Virus genome (UHGV): UHGV-0128973
Source of the DNA: a virus
Direction: 5' to 3' (one strand)
DNA length: 64,000 nt
The notes under the pieces were generated by a model. It ran no database searches. It was not told the DNA's origin and saw only the letters and a list, made by a program, of their open reading frames with translations. Positions 1,196 through 62,967 of this stretch are shown here, piece after piece; within the stretch, counting starts at the first letter, position 1; every line of letters begins with the position of its first letter. A program made the position numbers and the translations under genes.

Positions 1196-1233
1196 AATAA
1201 ACCGGCCAACATAGCCGGTTGGAAGGAAGGGTA

Positions 1234-1626
1234 TTATTCTACGCTTTCGATAAGAAGACCATGTTCATAACATTTAAGCTCATCGCCTTCGTACAGGAAT
1301 TGGTATCCAATACCACCATATTCAGGCACATTAGGGAATAACTCATCACTTACCGAAGAACAAATCACACCAATGCAGCGATCAACGCCTTCTCGTTCTT
1401 CAGTGCTGAAAAAATCCTCTTCGGTAAGAACATGAGTACATTGCTCATCAGCATAGGTCGGAAATACATGCTCGATGCAATCCGGGTGTTTTAAACCAAG
1501 CTGATCGGCAAGCTCGAAAGCATGACGGTATTGTTCAGATCCTGGCTTGCCAACAGTGATGTGCTCAATTTTGTAGATTGAAGTCGCTTTGTTGATAGTT
1601 TGCTTTACTGTTACTTTATCAGACAT
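1234..1626 (-). CDS. Hypothetical protein (130 aa)
   Basis: Compact ORF in a co-directional minus-strand gene block next to the replicon; no recognisable motif. Confidence 0.5.
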   Translation of the reverse strand: MSDKVTVKQTINKATSIYKIEHITVGKPGSEQYRHAFELADQLGLKHPDCIEHVFPTYADEQCTHVLTEEDFFSTEEREGVDRCIGVICSSVSDELFPNVPEYGGIGYQFLYEGDELKCYEHGLLIESVE

Positions 1627-1637
1627 AAAAATCCCTT

Positions 1638-1889
1638 TTAGTTACCGCTGATAGCGCGGTTGTAATCATTAACGTTGCGATTCTTCCTGTTAATCCCCTT
1701 CAGCATCGTTTCTGTATCGAGGATATACGCTGGCAGATCATCAAAATATTCACTGCTAAACTCTGGCATCCTGCACATAAATGCACTTTTGGGGGCAGGG
1801 TGGTTAACCTTTGTCGGCGTCGGCGTTAAATTCGCTGATCGACTCCCGGAGCAACCGCTGAGTGTCAGCAGGAATGCGCTGGCGAACAT
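1638..1889 (-). CDS. Putative o-spanin-like lipoprotein (lipobox LSGC, Pro/Thr-rich), overlapping the i-spanin-like gene in another frame
   Basis: MFASAFLLTLSGCSG signal/lipobox then LTPTPTKVNHPAPK; start chosen at internal Met of ORF 1638..1970. Confidence 0.35.
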   Translation of the reverse strand: MFASAFLLTLSGCSGSRSANLTPTPTKVNHPAPKSAFMCRMPEFSSEYFDDLPAYILDTETMLKGINRKNRNVNDYNRAISGN

Positions 1890-2253
1890 TACCCGCCGCA
1901 ACCAGTTGTTTCTGAACTTCAGCTTTTCGTTCCATTTGCCTGTCAGCATATTTGGCTTGTTCTGATTCATTTTTCACTTCCTGGCTGTGAAAATGTTGCT
2001 CTGCTTTGTTCATCGTCTCAATGGTCTGGTTAAGATCCATTATTGACTTATCACGTTCCTTAATAGCCTGATCAAGACTGCCAATTTTCTCCATGGCTTG
2101 CTTTAGCTGATGACGTTCCCATGCAAACCCAGCACCAACAAGTGCGCAAATCAGAACAAGAACACCAGTAGCAGCAAGTTTCTCCTTCAAAGACAAAGCT
2201 GTTTTTAACGTAGAAAAGAATGACATGTCTTCCTCCTGAAGAAAAATTATCAA
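1804..2253 (-). CDS. Putative i-spanin-like protein (N-terminal TM helix plus coiled coil)
   Basis: Hydrophobic segment TGVLVLICALVGAGFAW followed by a long charged helical region; o-spanin-like ORF embedded at its 3' end. Confidence 0.4.
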   Translation of the reverse strand: MIIFLQEEDMSFFSTLKTALSLKEKLAATGVLVLICALVGAGFAWERHQLKQAMEKIGSLDQAIKERDKSIMDLNQTIETMNKAEQHFHSQEVKNESEQAKYADRQMERKAEVQKQLVAAGNVRQRIPADTQRLLRESISEFNADADKG

Positions 2254-2265
2254 TGAAGTCCTTTG

Positions 2266-3111
2266 TTACTGTGCCGCTTTGTTTAATTCATCAAGAACAG
2301 AATCAGGAACCAAAGCGGCAACTGCGCTGGCTGTGCTGACCTTATTTGCTGATGCTTCCGCAAGCGCGGTACCGATAGCATGGTTATAAGCAGTTATGGC
2401 TACGTTGGCGCTTTCATACGCTCGTTCATACTGCTGTTGTAACGCAGTTGTGGGCGCTGTTGTCTGGTTGAAAACAACCCTAAACTGTTCCGTTGCTACT
2501 TTCAGAGATTCAATTTGCTCTTCTGTTAGTGCTGGTGGGGGAGTGGCAGTGCCGCCGCCTGAACCAGAGCCTGACGAGCTTCCTGAGCCAGTGTTAAGGG
2601 TCTGGTTAATCTCCCCCATAGCAGCGACTAAACTTGATGTATTAAGCGCGTTAACAGCGTCCTCAAGCGATTTAGTAATATTCACATCACCAATGGCAAT
2701 AGAGATCGGCAGTTCTGAAACTTCTCGCTCATTAGCACGGCAGTAAACATCCCAACCAATATCGAGTTGAAGCAGCATTGACAGATCTGCATAACCAGCC
2801 AACAGGTCCGCGTGCTTAGTTGCCAGTTCTCCAATGTTCGTTAAGCCGGTTGTGGTTGTTCTGATCGTTGAAACATAGCTGGTAATAGTGTCGGGATAGA
2901 CAATTGTATCCAGAATTAATCCGGTCAATTCTTCTGCAAGCAGTTTTGCTGTGTTAGCACTGTTTCGTGCCGATGTTATGGCACCAGGTGTTTTCATCCC
3001 ACCGGCGGCGGCCAATTTTTTATATGCGGATAACTGGTAGTCTTTTTCCAGCATGATATCTCCTAACTTACCTGAACCAGGCCGTCTCCGGACGCTACGG
3101 TAGATCCGCAT
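2266..3111 (-). CDS. Hypothetical protein with Gly/Ser-rich linker (possible virion protein)
   Basis: 281-aa ORF containing GSGSSSGSGSGGG low-complexity tract; true start may be internal Met near 3054. Confidence 0.5.
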   Translation of the reverse strand: MRIYRSVRRRPGSGKLGDIMLEKDYQLSAYKKLAAAGGMKTPGAITSARNSANTAKLLAEELTGLILDTIVYPDTITSYVSTIRTTTTGLTNIGELATKHADLLAGYADLSMLLQLDIGWDVYCRANEREVSELPISIAIGDVNITKSLEDAVNALNTSSLVAAMGEINQTLNTGSGSSSGSGSGGGTATPPPALTEEQIESLKVATEQFRVVFNQTTAPTTALQQQYERAYESANVAITAYNHAIGTALAEASANKVSTASAVAALVPDSVLDELNKAAQ

Positions 3112-3347
3112 GAAACAGGGTCACCAACGCATACGATCCCTTTACCATTGACGGTAAACCATGCCCTGGTTGATATAGCTTGCCCACCGTGCGTACTGTT
3201 TCCATCGGTATGCTGTGCATATTGCTTACCATCAACTAACACTTCGACTCCGTTGACTTTAAGTAGTGGTTCACTCTCTACAGGAGGCCTGGATGGGAAT
3301 CCTCCGTGCCCCGAACAAATGCTGTCTTTTGTTGCAATACTTGCCAC
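3063..3347 (-). CDS. Small PAAR-like protein (candidate spike-tip protein)
   Basis: 94 aa with repeated HGG motifs and VCVGDPVSCGS, reminiscent of PAAR repeats. Confidence 0.35.
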   Translation of the reverse strand: MASIATKDSICSGHGGFPSRPPVESEPLLKVNGVEVLVDGKQYAQHTDGNSTHGGQAISTRAWFTVNGKGIVCVGDPVSCGSTVASGDGLVQVS

Positions 3348-3427
3348 GTCATCACCAATTATTTGCTCTGGTTTTCGTTATTTTAACTTAGGTTACTTGT
3401 GGTCTACATGGTGTTAACTATTGTATG

Positions 3428-3444
3428 ATTGCTCTAATAAATAT
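3428..3444 (+). promoter_or_regulatory. C1-repressor operator-like site (ATTGCTCTAATAAATAT)
   Basis: 16/17 match to the asymmetric P1 C1 operator consensus ATTGCTCTAATAAATTT in a divergent intergenic region. Confidence 0.6.
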
Positions 3445-53185: not shown

Positions 53186-53440
53186 TTATCGCCTTCGCCT
53201 GCGTGCCATATATTTGCGCACCGCGCGGCGTGGACAATCTGAAGCGGTTTCTTTCTGCTGCATCAATCTTGCAGCCATGCTCAAAAATGTCAGGCACAGC
53301 CGAAGCCCGGCATACAATAGCGGTTCCAGTGGCCACGTCTCATTGAGCACATATACCGCCATGAAAATCGAGTCGAAAACTATCGCCGCCAGCGATAACT
53401 TCATTGTCGAAAGTCGGCGGAGCTGCCGGAGTTTATTCAT
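53186..53440 (-). CDS. Small membrane protein downstream of lyz (lysis-associated)
   Basis: 84 aa with hydrophobic helix and Arg-rich C-terminus; overlaps lyz stop. Confidence 0.45.
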   Translation of the reverse strand: MNKLRQLRRLSTMKLSLAAIVFDSIFMAVYVLNETWPLEPLLYAGLRLCLTFLSMAARLMQQKETASDCPRRAVRKYMARRRRR

Positions 53441-53990
53441 TGACCAGTCCCGTCAGGCAAAGCTGGCGTTCTTTTTCACGGCGAATCTTTAAACCTCGCA
53501 GGGGCACGCCGTTACTGTTCACGAAATCAGGGAGATGGTTACACATATTCACCCATTCCCCTTTCTGCGCCCACTTGTGGATGGACGTTTCTACTCGCAT
53601 GCCTCGCGCTTTGCTGTAGTAGGTCCGTAAGCTATTGCATCCCATATTGAATGCCGCGCTTGTCATTGCACTGAAGGCATTATCGGGCATGTCTTTGCCC
53701 CGGAAGTGCTGATTAATACAGCGTTCAGCGATCAGGATATTCTTTTCCCAATCAGTGGCGATTTGCTGGTCTGTTTTTCGCACACCCGGCGTTACCCCGT
53801 GTGTATTACCGATCCCGTCAGTCCATACCCCTGCCGGGCACATGTATGGATCACGTCGGCAACCTTCAGCGTTACCAATCAGCTCAAGCCCCGCCTGGTT
53901 GGTTCGCACATTGCCATTACCCATCACGATGGTAATCATCACCGCGATAGCGCAAATTGCACCGCCTCCTGCGGCTGTTTTTCCCTTCAT
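53433..53990 (-). CDS. lyz: SAR endolysin (T4-lysozyme family)
   Basis: 185 aa from MKGKTAAGGGAICAIAVMITIVMG (SAR domain) then ELIGNAEGCRRDPY catalytic region. Confidence 0.9.
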   Translation of the reverse strand: MKGKTAAGGGAICAIAVMITIVMGNGNVRTNQAGLELIGNAEGCRRDPYMCPAGVWTDGIGNTHGVTPGVRKTDQQIATDWEKNILIAERCINQHFRGKDMPDNAFSAMTSAAFNMGCNSLRTYYSKARGMRVETSIHKWAQKGEWVNMCNHLPDFVNSNGVPLRGLKIRREKERQLCLTGLVNE

Positions 53991-61259: not shown

Positions 61260-61871
61260 TTAATTTCCTGCTTTCAGTTGCTTAAGACGGCGTTTGAGTT
61301 CGCCATTTCGGGCCTTTTCGTTATTGAGTCGGCCTGTCTCCTTATCCAGCTTCGCCCGCAAATCAGTGATCTGCTGTTGATTGAAAGACACCGAGTTCTG
61401 CGCTGATTTATAAGCGGCAACCACCTGAGCATTCCGCTGTTTTGCCTCTTGCAGGCGCTGAAAGTTGGATTTTACTGCCGGTTTCTTGTCTACCGGATTG
61501 GCAACACGTTTCGCTTTGGCGATCAGTGATTTCTGGAATTTTGCGGAGTTTTTGCGGGCCGCTTGCCCCATGACGGTACCAAGCGTCTTGATATCCGGCG
61601 ATTGAGCGTTAGGAATAGCTTTTCCATTCAGCCTCACAGACGATATATCGCCAGTATCGTTTACCTGTATGGCAAGAATTTGTCCGTCGTTAAGAACCAG
61701 CTTTGCGGTTTTAACTTTAACGCCATCTTTCGTTGTTGCGCGGTTGCTGGAGTCAACCTCAATTACCGTAACACCGGTTTTATTGATCGCCGCGATAAGG
61801 GATTTCAGCCCCTTTTCATTAACCTGGTCAAAATCGACCGTTGCATACTTATTTTTCGTCATCTGACACAT
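61260..61871 (-). CDS. hdf: Hdf-like protein
   Basis: 203-aa ORF immediately upstream of darA. Confidence 0.55.
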   Translation of the reverse strand: MCQMTKNKYATVDFDQVNEKGLKSLIAAINKTGVTVIEVDSSNRATTKDGVKVKTAKLVLNDGQILAIQVNDTGDISSVRLNGKAIPNAQSPDIKTLGTVMGQAARKNSAKFQKSLIAKAKRVANPVDKKPAVKSNFQRLQEAKQRNAQVVAAYKSAQNSVSFNQQQITDLRAKLDKETGRLNNEKARNGELKRRLKQLKAGN

Positions 61872-62292
61872 CCTGTGCGAGATTTATTACGTAACTTCTG
61901 CGGATTTGCTGAGTAACAGGGAAAATCCGATACAACGGGTTAATGAACGAGTCGCCATGCGTAACCATGACGTTGAAATGCCACAGTCGCTCTCCTTTAC
62001 CCATATATTCAGTGGGTATGTACAACCATTCACTGTTTTCGCCCTGTTCAGCCGACGTCAGACAACGTTGTTCACCTTCAATCACTGTCGTCGGCTTCTG
62101 AACATCGCGGATCCAATATCTGACCGTTGCGCCGCGCAAAAACGGGAATTTAGACCGGTACTTGAACGGCACCCGGATGAAACCCGGTTTAATTTCCACA
62201 TCACCAAGTTCTAAATGCGTGATGTCCTTGCGTTTTAGCAAATAGCGATCGGCTAAGGCTAACGCAAGAACGCATACACCCCAGCCAATCAT
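61849..62292 (-). CDS. lydB: LydB-like antiholin
   Basis: 147-aa ORF downstream of holin gene, overlapping stop/start. Confidence 0.6.
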   Translation of the reverse strand: MIGWGVCVLALALADRYLLKRKDITHLELGDVEIKPGFIRVPFKYRSKFPFLRGATVRYWIRDVQKPTTVIEGEQRCLTSAEQGENSEWLYIPTEYMGKGERLWHFNVMVTHGDSFINPLYRIFPVTQQIRRSYVINLAQDVSDDEK

Positions 62293-62618
62293 TTCCCGCC
62301 TCCCTTTTTCACCAAACTTGTAAGAACATTCAGAATGCTATCGATATTCACTCGTTTCATCCCTGAAATCACCTCATGACCGTTATTGCTGGCTATCGTT
62401 ACCATTAAGTACGTAATTGATAACTCCCAGCCCTCGTGTTGCCCCAATAGGTACGCCACCGCGCCAGCTGTCACTGCAACAAAGATCTCCGTAACCAATC
62501 CCAACAAATTGCCAGACTGGCGACCGTCTCGGACATCCATCAGGAACGTGCCTATCCCACCAATTACTGAAAGCAGGAGCGCAATAGCAACTGGAGCTAA
62601 TTCCTGTGTGTCAAGCAC
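62289..62618 (-). CDS. lydA: LydA-like holin
   Basis: 109 aa with three hydrophobic segments. Confidence 0.65.
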   Translation of the reverse strand: MLDTQELAPVAIALLLSVIGGIGTFLMDVRDGRQSGNLLGLVTEIFVAVTAGAVAYLLGQHEGWELSITYLMVTIASNNGHEVISGMKRVNIDSILNVLTSLVKKGGGK

Positions 62619-62685
62619 AAGTTCCCTCCTACGTTGTCAGGAGGTAATGGTATGCAAAGTAACTTCTCAACCGGTCATTTGTTGC

Positions 62686-62967
62686 TTAAGAGGCATTTCT
62701 ATTGAGGTACGAATCGATAATCCTTTGTAACTTTTCAAGAATGAGCCTGTTATTGATGCTGCAAATAATAGTCACGCAATTCTGAAGACTTTCATCCATA
62801 CCCTTATATTCCGCGAAATACATGCCTATAAAGCCTGCAAGTACGGCAGCAATACACTCGGCCATCAATTGCCTGCATGACGCTTCGTAACGTTTTTCAC
62901 GAACCCCATTCAGAAACGAATGCACCCCGCCAAGGATGGAGAGGAGCATTATTGTGAAATCACACAT
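62686..62967 (-). CDS. Small two-TM membrane protein (holin-like)
   Basis: 93 aa; hydrophobic helices LLSILGGVHSFL and IAAVLAGFIGMYF. Confidence 0.4.
   Translation of the reverse strand: MCDFTIMLLSILGGVHSFLNGVREKRYEASCRQLMAECIAAVLAGFIGMYFAEYKGMDESLQNCVTIICSINNRLILEKLQRIIDSYLNRNAS

Follow-up and report, generated by a model that had tools for sequence, protein, structure and literature searches.

Organization of the ppfA-mlp locus

The genes considered here form an overlapping pair on the minus strand of a 64,000-nucleotide stretch of viral DNA (henceforth the window, meaning the whole stretch that was analysed), which belongs to a P1-like phage-plasmid. Across all of bases 1200-3400 the window aligns with P1-like phage-plasmids, with identities of 98.9% to vB_EcoM-Ro157c2YLVW, 95.8% to P1 (NC_005856, 62915-65116) and 95.3% to P7. 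By sequence, the pair is that of the P1 genes ppfA and mlp: the products are 98.6% (PpfA) and 97.3% (Mlp) identical to their P1 counterparts and have the same neighbors, namely repA-oriR-upfA and upfB-upfC-dmt (Table 1). The P1 record places repA, oriR, upfA, mlp, ppfA, upfB and upfC on one strand, with the dmt operon diverging on the other side. The differences from the P1 and P7 pair are confined to a few substitutions, such as those giving M45 and I55 in PpfA and N7, A32 and K91 in Mlp, and structural differences are absent. The original prediction for this DNA had placed a spanin-like gene pair beside a plasmid replicon, and oriR and repA do lie directly downstream, at positions 15 to about 1200.

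Table 1. Coordinates of the ppfA-mlp pair, its sequence elements, the adjoining genes and the distant lysis genes of the window
Feature	Coordinates	Strand	Basis
Terminator-like hairpin and T-run just after upfA, before oriR	1206..1222	minus	consensus scan
upfA, co-oriented downstream gene	1234..1626	minus	ORF, P1 record
mlp, predicted o-spanin read in +1 relative to ppfA; precursor of 110 aa, mature lipoprotein of 71 aa	1638..1970	minus	ORF, P1 annotation, PHROGs, BLASTP
ppfA, predicted i-spanin, 140 aa	1804..2226	minus	ORF, translation, identity to P1 PpfA, AF2, heptad test, PHROG 89
Dual-coding overlap, 167 nt; PpfA residues 86-140 and stop, Mlp residues 1-55	1804..1970	minus	substitution pattern
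Lipobox of mlp, codons L37-S38-G39-C40, with Cys40 predicted to be lipidated and Ser at +2	1851..1862	minus	sequence; kept in relatives
TTG, Mlp codon 24, possible alternative start; canonical 16-residue signal MRRVMFASAFLLTLSG followed by C	1899..1901	minus	alignment with relatives and P2 LysC
Shine-Dalgarno-like AGGAAG upstream of ATG 1970 of mlp; distant relatives have caGGAGGtg	1977..1982	minus	sequence; motif also in SpaninDB
Single transmembrane segment, ppfA codons 17-35, LAATGVLVLICALVGAGFA	2122..2178	minus	Kyte-Doolittle maximum 2.35 over 19 residues
Shine-Dalgarno AGGAGG of ppfA, 5 nt before ATG 2226	2232..2237	minus	sequence
upfB, co-oriented upstream gene; true start probably ATG 3054	2266..3111	minus	ORF, P1 record
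upfC, PAAR-like protein, first gene of the co-oriented block	3063..3347	minus	ORF, P1 record, NCBIfam
lyz, SAR endolysin; then lydD (53186-53440)	53433..53990	minus	
Holin/antiholin genes lydB (61849-62292), lydA holin (62289-62618) and lydC (62686-62967)	61849..62967	minus	

Leftward transcription probably stops after upfA and before oriR, at a terminator-like hairpin in a region where such sites are not above shuffle expectation in the consensus scan. One Klebsiella relative lacks upfA. The only promoters that the P1 record gives for the pair are predicted sigma-70 promoters inside upfB, and no Lpa-dependent late promoter is annotated for it. We searched with a query for Lpa-type late promoters derived from LPlyz and LPdar (AAGTnACTT-N4-TAnnnT), and this gave one match with 1 mismatch, upstream of upfC at 3398-3380. 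This candidate was given little weight as a late promoter, since P1 itself has the motif in degenerate form and distant relatives lack it.

The known lysis genes of the window are remote from this block. The pair had been described as far from lyz (53.4 kb) and the holin genes (62 kb), and the coordinates of lyz and lydA/B/C agree with this, the nearest lysis gene in the window being ~51 kb from ppfA and mlp; a place in a lysis cassette is usual for spanin genes and not required of them. Scattered lysis genes are a known peculiarity of P1 (Bednarek et al. 2022). Because spanins stay inactive as long as the murein is in place, we infer that an unlinked location of their genes should not matter, and this inertness may explain the tolerance of the odd location.

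PpfA as a predicted type II membrane protein with a helical periplasmic domain

The original prediction had taken ORF 1804-2253 as the first gene of the pair, with a transmembrane helix followed by a coiled coil. Both structural features were borne out, and what did not stand is the 149-residue ORF opening at TTG, which is merely mechanical. The true start of ppfA is almost certainly ATG 2226, and we take it as such because the upstream tcAGGAGG and the ATG are kept in all relatives, including the divergent ones, while the nine-codon extension reaching up to TTG 2253 is not.

In rule-based tests, PpfA has one hydrophobic segment, preceded by an N-terminal flank with a net charge of +2, which is consistent with an N-in/C-out topology. 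A single N-terminal transmembrane segment in this predicted orientation is what is looked for in the i-spanin of an overlapped pair, and so is an α-helical periplasmic domain with a linker, which was recovered both in the structure prediction and in the heptad test. The AlphaFold2 model, built from a 16-sequence alignment and having a mean pLDDT of 72, has two helices, at residues 13-110 and 120-137, which are separated by a break at 111-119 (AAGNVRQRIP). A continuous heptad register runs through residues 37-82, with 69% of its 'a' and 'd' positions occupied by L, I, V, M or F, a level equalled by 4 of 5000 shuffles, which agrees with the coiled-coil character claimed for the protein. It should be noted that a coiled-coil prediction is not universal among i-spanins (Kongari et al. 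2018). PpfA has no cysteine outside its transmembrane segment, and hence its count of periplasmic cysteines is 0.

Mlp as a predicted outer-membrane lipoprotein

The second gene of the pair encodes a protein beginning with MNQNKPNMLTGKWNEKLKFRNNWLRRVMFASAFLLTLSG, which is followed by CSGSRSANLTPTPTKVNHPAPKS... on the mature side, with a consensus lipobox, a serine at +2 and one more cysteine at position 66. Its signal contains the hydrophobic run VMFASAFLLTL, which follows an RR pair and leads into L-S-G-C. The LSGC lipobox that had been read in the second frame was recovered in a rule-based scan, ending at Cys40. The predicted Mlp signal agrees with the o-spanin pattern [LVI][ASTVI][GAS]C and with the exclusion of Asp from +2, a position that is Ser here. 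A periplasmic cysteine for intermolecular disulfides, which is common and not universal in spanin complexes, is also found, in that Cys66 is invariant in all relatives and aligns with a cysteine of P2 LysC. A scan for lipoprotein signals that took in all potential start codons of the 64-kb window, in six reading frames, returned mlp and four short out-of-frame ORFs without further support, and mlp is the sole convincing lipoprotein signal in the window.

The mature region had further been called Pro/Thr-rich. This is true of its first ~20 residues (TPTPTKVNHPAP), to which the enrichment is limited, and not of the whole, with just 6 prolines and 5 threonines among all 71 residues. The AlphaFold2 model of Mlp is of low confidence (pLDDT 49) and does no more than hint at disorder in the N-proximal part and at a helical last third.

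Three positions were considered for the start of Mlp. With ATG 1970, which has a conserved Shine-Dalgarno sequence, the signal peptide is 39 residues long. The TTG at 1901, which lacks a Shine-Dalgarno sequence, lines up with Met1 of P2 LysC and with an ATG in four of the six distant relatives. The ATG at codon 28 is unlikely as a start because some close relatives have a Val codon there. It is conceivable that translation of Mlp begins at both ATG 1970 and TTG 1901, which would lead to the same mature lipoprotein, through a 39- or a 16-residue signal peptide.

Dual coding in the region of overlap

The two genes had been proposed to have the overlapped i-spanin/o-spanin architecture, with the second frame embedded at the 3' end of the first. 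The overlapped architecture holds; the embedding does not, since mlp reaches 166 nt beyond the ppfA stop, with 167 nt common to both genes. In other words, mlp begins inside ppfA in the +1 frame and ends beyond it, as an o-spanin gene of the overlapped class does relative to its i-spanin gene.

We counted substitutions per site between the window and six relatives with PpfA proteins 59-64% identical to the one studied here. In the DNA belonging to mlp only, codon positions 1, 2 and 3 have 0.18, 0.11 and 0.47 substitutions per site, and from this pattern we conclude that mlp is a translated gene under purifying selection. The corresponding values for the DNA belonging to ppfA only are 0.32, 0.28 and 0.55, and taken over both genes the substitution pattern shows purifying selection on both frames. 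The divergence per site is 0.22 in the overlap versus 0.38 in the ppfA-only DNA, as expected if the shared stretch is under double constraint. Changes in the overlap sit at position 3 of ppfA codons, which is position 2 of mlp codons; the C-terminus of PpfA encoded there is 65-76% identical between the window and these relatives, and the n-region of the Mlp signal peptide is 38-46% identical. The burden of the overlap is borne by the n-region of the Mlp signal peptide.

Conservation and phyletic distribution

All 82 of the close relatives that could be parsed, which represent 54 distinct DNA sequences, have intact copies of both ORFs and a lipobox. The six relatives with 59-64% identical PpfA comprise Cronobacter phage JK004 and contigs of ~90 kb from Salmonella, Klebsiella and metagenomes. 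They retain the synteny upfC(PAAR)-upfB-ppfA-mlp-(upfA)-repA-parAB, and each has a +1 ORF with caGGAGGtg and an ATG in the same place, a lipobox of the form L[SN][AG]C and the motif FMCRMPE. When 1.84 billion representatives were searched exhaustively with an HMM, 38 matches were obtained, of which the full-length ones came from P1-like contexts or from a contig too short to reveal its gene neighborhood, and the others were fragments or coiled-coil noise. This search reached two full-length PpfA relatives, at 32% and 28% identity, and in these the overlapped lipoprotein ORF is again present, with the motifs FLL[TS]LS[AS]C and MC[TR][ML]P.

Searches of 50,697 phage records with PpfA and Mlp by tblastn returned only P1-like phages and Cronobacter phage JK004. 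None of the relatives found in these records lies inside a classical lysis cassette, so that an argument from guilt by association is not possible. A scan of genome contigs recovered three close relatives and no others. The placement of the pair on the side of the replicon is conserved in all relatives, and in a survey of 77 P1-like phage-plasmids ppfA and mlp were among the 21 most conserved genes.

Relationship to known spanin families

Among the PHROG families, the best match of PpfA is phrog_89, annotated as 'Rz-like spanin' (7e-26), a profile that may itself include P1-like sequences. Other matches of PpfA or its remote relatives were to a tail tape-measure family (PHROG 167, weak, E=1.6e-4) and to a few families of unknown function. 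The best match of Mlp is phrog_30284 (3e-76), followed by phrog_456 (1.3e-5), both also annotated as 'Rz-like spanin'. These families link the pair to phage P2, with LysB being a member of PHROG 89 and LysC of PHROG 456, and LysC also matching phrog_30284 at 5.4e-4. In a direct BLASTP comparison Mlp and P2 LysC align with E=4e-8 and 37% identity over 68 aa, and the alignment takes in the signal peptide and lipobox region as well as the PTP stretch and the C-x-M-P motif. In NCBIfam, the model NF038368 (P2_Rz1) scores 14.9 bits against Mlp (E=0.023), below its cut-off of 27, and TIGR03495 (phage_LysB) scores 19.7 bits against PpfA, below its cut-off of 92.75. These sub-threshold matches are weak and are concordant with each other, both pointing to the P2 pair. 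On this sequence evidence Mlp is a distant homologue of LysC, and not a member of the family by the curated NCBIfam threshold.

Between PpfA and LysB the similarity is at best marginal. BLASTP of PpfA against P2 LysB gave no significant match, and hhalign of the alignments of the two families gave a probability of 33% and E=4.5e-4 over only 43 columns, which cover the transmembrane helix and the proximal helix. PpfA may accordingly be described as an analogue of LysB, and possibly as a very remote homologue. As for lambda, homology of PpfA to Rz was considered and rejected: hhalign found no significant similarity (probability 1.7%), and Pfam gave neither PpfA nor Mlp a match at E<=1 to the Rz (Phage_lysis) or Rz1 families, with weak coiled-coil noise only. 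In a single BLASTP comparison of Mlp with Rz1, only the signal peptide and the Pro-rich region align (E=0.006).

Published assignment of the P1 pair

The assignment of ppfA and mlp as spanin genes is already known from the literature, and the present finding, while correct, is not novel. SpaninDB (Kongari et al. 2018) groups P1 (NC_005856, 'ovl', OIS gp064 / OOS) and P7 (Upf62.7/Upf62.4) as its family 'P1', in which ppfA figures as gp064 or Upf62.7 and mlp as gp063 or Upf62.4. The starts and Shine-Dalgarno sequences listed there are identical to ours, and periplasmic cysteines are counted as 0 and 1 (Kongari et al. 2018). Its curators also remarked on the great length of the signal sequence of the 110-aa o-spanin, which LipoP does not call (Kongari et al. 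2018). An alternative P7 pair that they mention, Upf50.0/50.5, lies outside the window, was dropped by the curators themselves and was not found by name in the P7 record. Bednarek et al. (2022) likewise give ppfA and mlp as the spanin genes of P1, partially overlapping and 'in yet another unlinked operon', identified from predicted features, with their function lacking experimental verification; according to these authors, the identification is to be credited to Summer et al. 2007. The earlier proposal had been open to refutation by P1 spanins mapping to other genes, and both published sources name this very pair. Judged by the sequences, one sentence of Bednarek et al. 2022 has the labels reversed, with ppfA given as the o-spanin and mlp as the i-spanin.

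In a genome-wide CRISPRi screen both genes were non-essential for plaque formation, with efficiencies of plating of 0.24/0.19 for mlp (a mild effect) and 1.3/1.2 for ppfA. Spanins are dispensable under standard laboratory conditions (Bednarek et al. 2022). In the literature on P1 ppfA and mlp we found no experimental functional study, and none later than Bednarek et al. 2022. The result is of very little discovery value; it has practical value for annotation, as many deposited records of P1-like elements and automatic calls annotate a stump of mlp of 45-52 codons without the lipobox, or give ppfA as 'hypothetical', and P1 is an easy test system.

Functional interpretation

Based on these observations we propose, with a probability of roughly 0.8, that ppfA and mlp encode the two subunits of the P1 spanin, which would act in the last step of lysis. 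The spanin-pair interpretation offered in the original prediction is supported by the features described above: every feature that is required of the overlapped two-component class, as defined by Summer et al. 2007 and Kongari et al. 2018, and that can be tested at the sequence level was found, and the published lists agree. The formation of a PpfA-Mlp complex, the outer-membrane localisation of Mlp, membrane fusion and the timing of expression we infer by analogy, the mechanism being modelled on lambda Rz/Rz1 as summarised in Kongari et al. 2018. The N-terminal helix of PpfA would insert in the inner membrane, with the helical domain extending into the periplasm, and a lipid anchor would hold Mlp in the outer membrane. 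The conserved C-terminal parts, residues 115-137 of PpfA and 75-107 of Mlp, would bind each other, so that the two proteins span the periplasm through the murein meshwork. Murein would restrain these complexes until it is degraded by the SAR endolysin Lyz, after triggering of the LydA and LydD holins, upon which the freed complexes would collapse and fuse the inner and outer membranes, allowing release of the virions.

With respect to expression, it is conceivable, albeit unlikely, that the P1-family spanin is transcribed outside the Lpa-dependent late regulon, from the sigma-70 promoters beside the replicon. In that case inert pre-assembled complexes might be present in lysogens, or the pair might have an extra envelope role in the prophage state.

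A rival reading, which we consider quite improbable, is that the pair is not a lysis device and constitutes a sigma-70-expressed envelope module of the plasmid-prophage state, acting in superinfection exclusion, in receptor masking like T5 Llp or Cor, or in some other surface modification. Its setting between oriR/repA/parAB and dmt, away from the lysis genes and kept there in all relatives, would suit such a role, as would the prediction of sigma-70 promoters alone in the P1 record and the failure of the Lpa-type motif search to find a conserved late promoter. The fact that both genes are non-essential for lytic growth could be read the same way; however, non-essentiality is equally expected of spanins. 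A lone lipoprotein of this kind would moreover not need a conserved, overlapped type II coiled-coil partner, and the PHROG matches of PpfA are mostly to 'Rz-like spanin' families. The Mlp homologue LysC sits in the lysis cluster of P2, beside lysA/lysB, and upfC, at the head of the block, encodes a PAAR-like protein, which suggests a virion component more than a lysogeny function.

The homology with LysC also bears on an older view, namely that the products regulate the timing of lysis instead of disrupting the outer membrane, which was the original reading of P2 lysB/lysC. This is echoed in the P1 record, where the note for mlp says 'possibly involved in regulation of lysis, by homology', and in the notes of the P2 record. 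However, the P2 genes are now 'Rz-like spanin' in RefSeq and PHROGs and 'Rz-like/Rz1-like lysis system protein' in NCBIfam, and a spanin defect resembles a delay of lysis in turbidity curves. The signals for an inner-membrane anchor and an outer-membrane lipoprotein also fit a periplasm-spanning complex, and we regard a role restricted to timing as very improbable. Finally, the notion that mlp is a chance ORF inside and after ppfA, the latter being the sole gene, might seem to be favored by most automatic gene calls, which drop the overlapped part of mlp and call only its tail, but is already refuted by conservation and the substitution pattern, given that the frame is intact in all the close relatives, that frame, Shine-Dalgarno sequence and ATG, lipobox and Cys66 are retained even where PpfA identity drops to 28%, that third-position substitutions are in excess in this frame downstream of the ppfA stop, and that Mlp is homologous to P2 LysC.

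Comparison with the spanins of P2 and lambda

The reading of ppfA and mlp as a two-subunit spanin may be set against two well-known systems. The closest parallel is P2 LysB/LysC, the type example of the overlapped spanin architecture. The overlap there amounts to 146 nt (lysB 423-848 and lysC 703-993 in locus L093), as against 167 nt here, and the products are of similar size, with 141 and 96 aa for LysB and LysC versus 140 and 110 aa for PpfA and Mlp. The two pairs differ in that lysB and lysC belong to the P2 lysis cluster, directly after lysA in a late operon, whereas ppfA and mlp are tens of kb from the lysis genes. LysB also has conserved C-terminal cysteines, in contrast to PpfA, with its lack of any periplasmic cysteine.

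With lambda Rz/Rz1 the pair shares, in its predicted topology, the combination of a type II helical inner-membrane protein with a hinge and a small outer-membrane lipoprotein encoded in the +1 frame. Yet Rz1 is wholly embedded in Rz, whereas mlp runs past the ppfA stop, and Rz/Rz1 stand at the end of the S-R-Rz lysis cassette, unlike the unlinked pair of P1. In periplasmic cysteine, too, PpfA differs from Rz, having none. The lipoproteins themselves are also rather different, Rz1 being a protein of 40 aa with a penta-proline stretch, and mature Mlp having 71 aa and being partly helical in a prediction of low confidence.

Distribution and annotation of the spanin genes

The PpfA (i-spanin) family is extremely narrow, with an HMM search across 1.84 billion representative proteins recovering 38 matches at E<=1e-3. 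The full-length matches come either from P1-like contexts or from L100, a contig too short to provide a context; fragments or coiled-coil noise account for the rest. Of the two partners, the o-spanin is the better conserved, with Mlp sharing 66% identity with its counterpart in Cronobacter phage JK004 as against 59% for PpfA. The Introduction of PMC9025707 (Bednarek 2022) describes ppfA as the o-spanin and mlp as the i-spanin gene; the sequences show the reverse, with the TM helix lying in PpfA and the lipobox in Mlp.

In several deposited P1-like records, as well as in automatic gene calls of relatives, mlp is cut down to its last 45–52 codons, with the product sometimes labelled 'Rz1'. This shortened product begins within the mature protein and is devoid of both the signal peptide and the lipobox. 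Such truncated calls reflect a bias of gene callers against overlapped genes.

The TTG at codon 24 of mlp is a candidate alternative start. In the alignment it is matched by an ATG in four of the six distant relatives (PpfA 59–64% identical), and it lines up with Met1 of LysC, the o-spanin of P2. Counted from this codon the lipoprotein signal would have the canonical length of 16 residues, as opposed to 39 from the ATG at 1970. The TTG lacks a Shine-Dalgarno sequence.

Features of the spanin-carrying block and its upstream region (window positions unless a relative is named)
Feature	Position	Strand	Remark
upfA	1234-1626		immediately 3' of mlp
mlp, 3' 141 nt	1638-1778		part annotated in shortened form
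mlp codon 24, TTG	1899-1901		candidate alternative start
upfB 5' end	3054-3111		as annotated in P1
upfC	3063-3347		
Late-promoter-like motif	3380-3398	minus	AAGTAACCT-AAGT-TAAAAT
C1 operator sequence	~3421-3437		between upfC and uhr
Shortened mlp calls	L002 940-1080; L087 4449-4589; L089 4431-4589		relatives

Neighboring genes and the upstream region

The gene upfA is dispensable and variable. It is absent from one Klebsiella relative (L088), and in phage JL22 a blaCTX-M-55 segment is inserted at this gene (PMC9603915). The upfB start of the P1 record corresponds to the ATG at 3111, entailing a 49-nt overlap with upfC. The alignment of UpfB to PHROG 1559 begins only at residue 20, the protein has 258 residues in the distant relatives, where its start lies beyond the upfC stop, and one record annotates a 262-residue form consistent with the ATG at 3054; hence the true start is probably downstream of the P1-annotated ATG. 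UpfC itself aligns along its whole length with the PAAR domain model of type VI secretion (E=4.5e-9, under the curated cut-off), and a note in the P1 record links it to T4 gp5.4; the block with the spanin genes thus opens with a probable tail-spike tip protein.

The most conserved element of the divergent upfC-uhr intergenic region in all relatives is a C1 operator (aatatttattagagcaat, as in Odmt/Op68 of P1), and its conservation extends to those with about 60% protein identity. A late-promoter-like motif lies 33 nt upstream of the upfC start, and the 64-kb window holds only 7 matches of this type. The motif is similar to two late promoters of P1, LPlyz (AAGTGATTT-N4-TATCCT) and LPdar (AAGTTACTT-N4-TACCAT). 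Its box is absent from the distant relatives, and P1 itself has a degenerate form of it.
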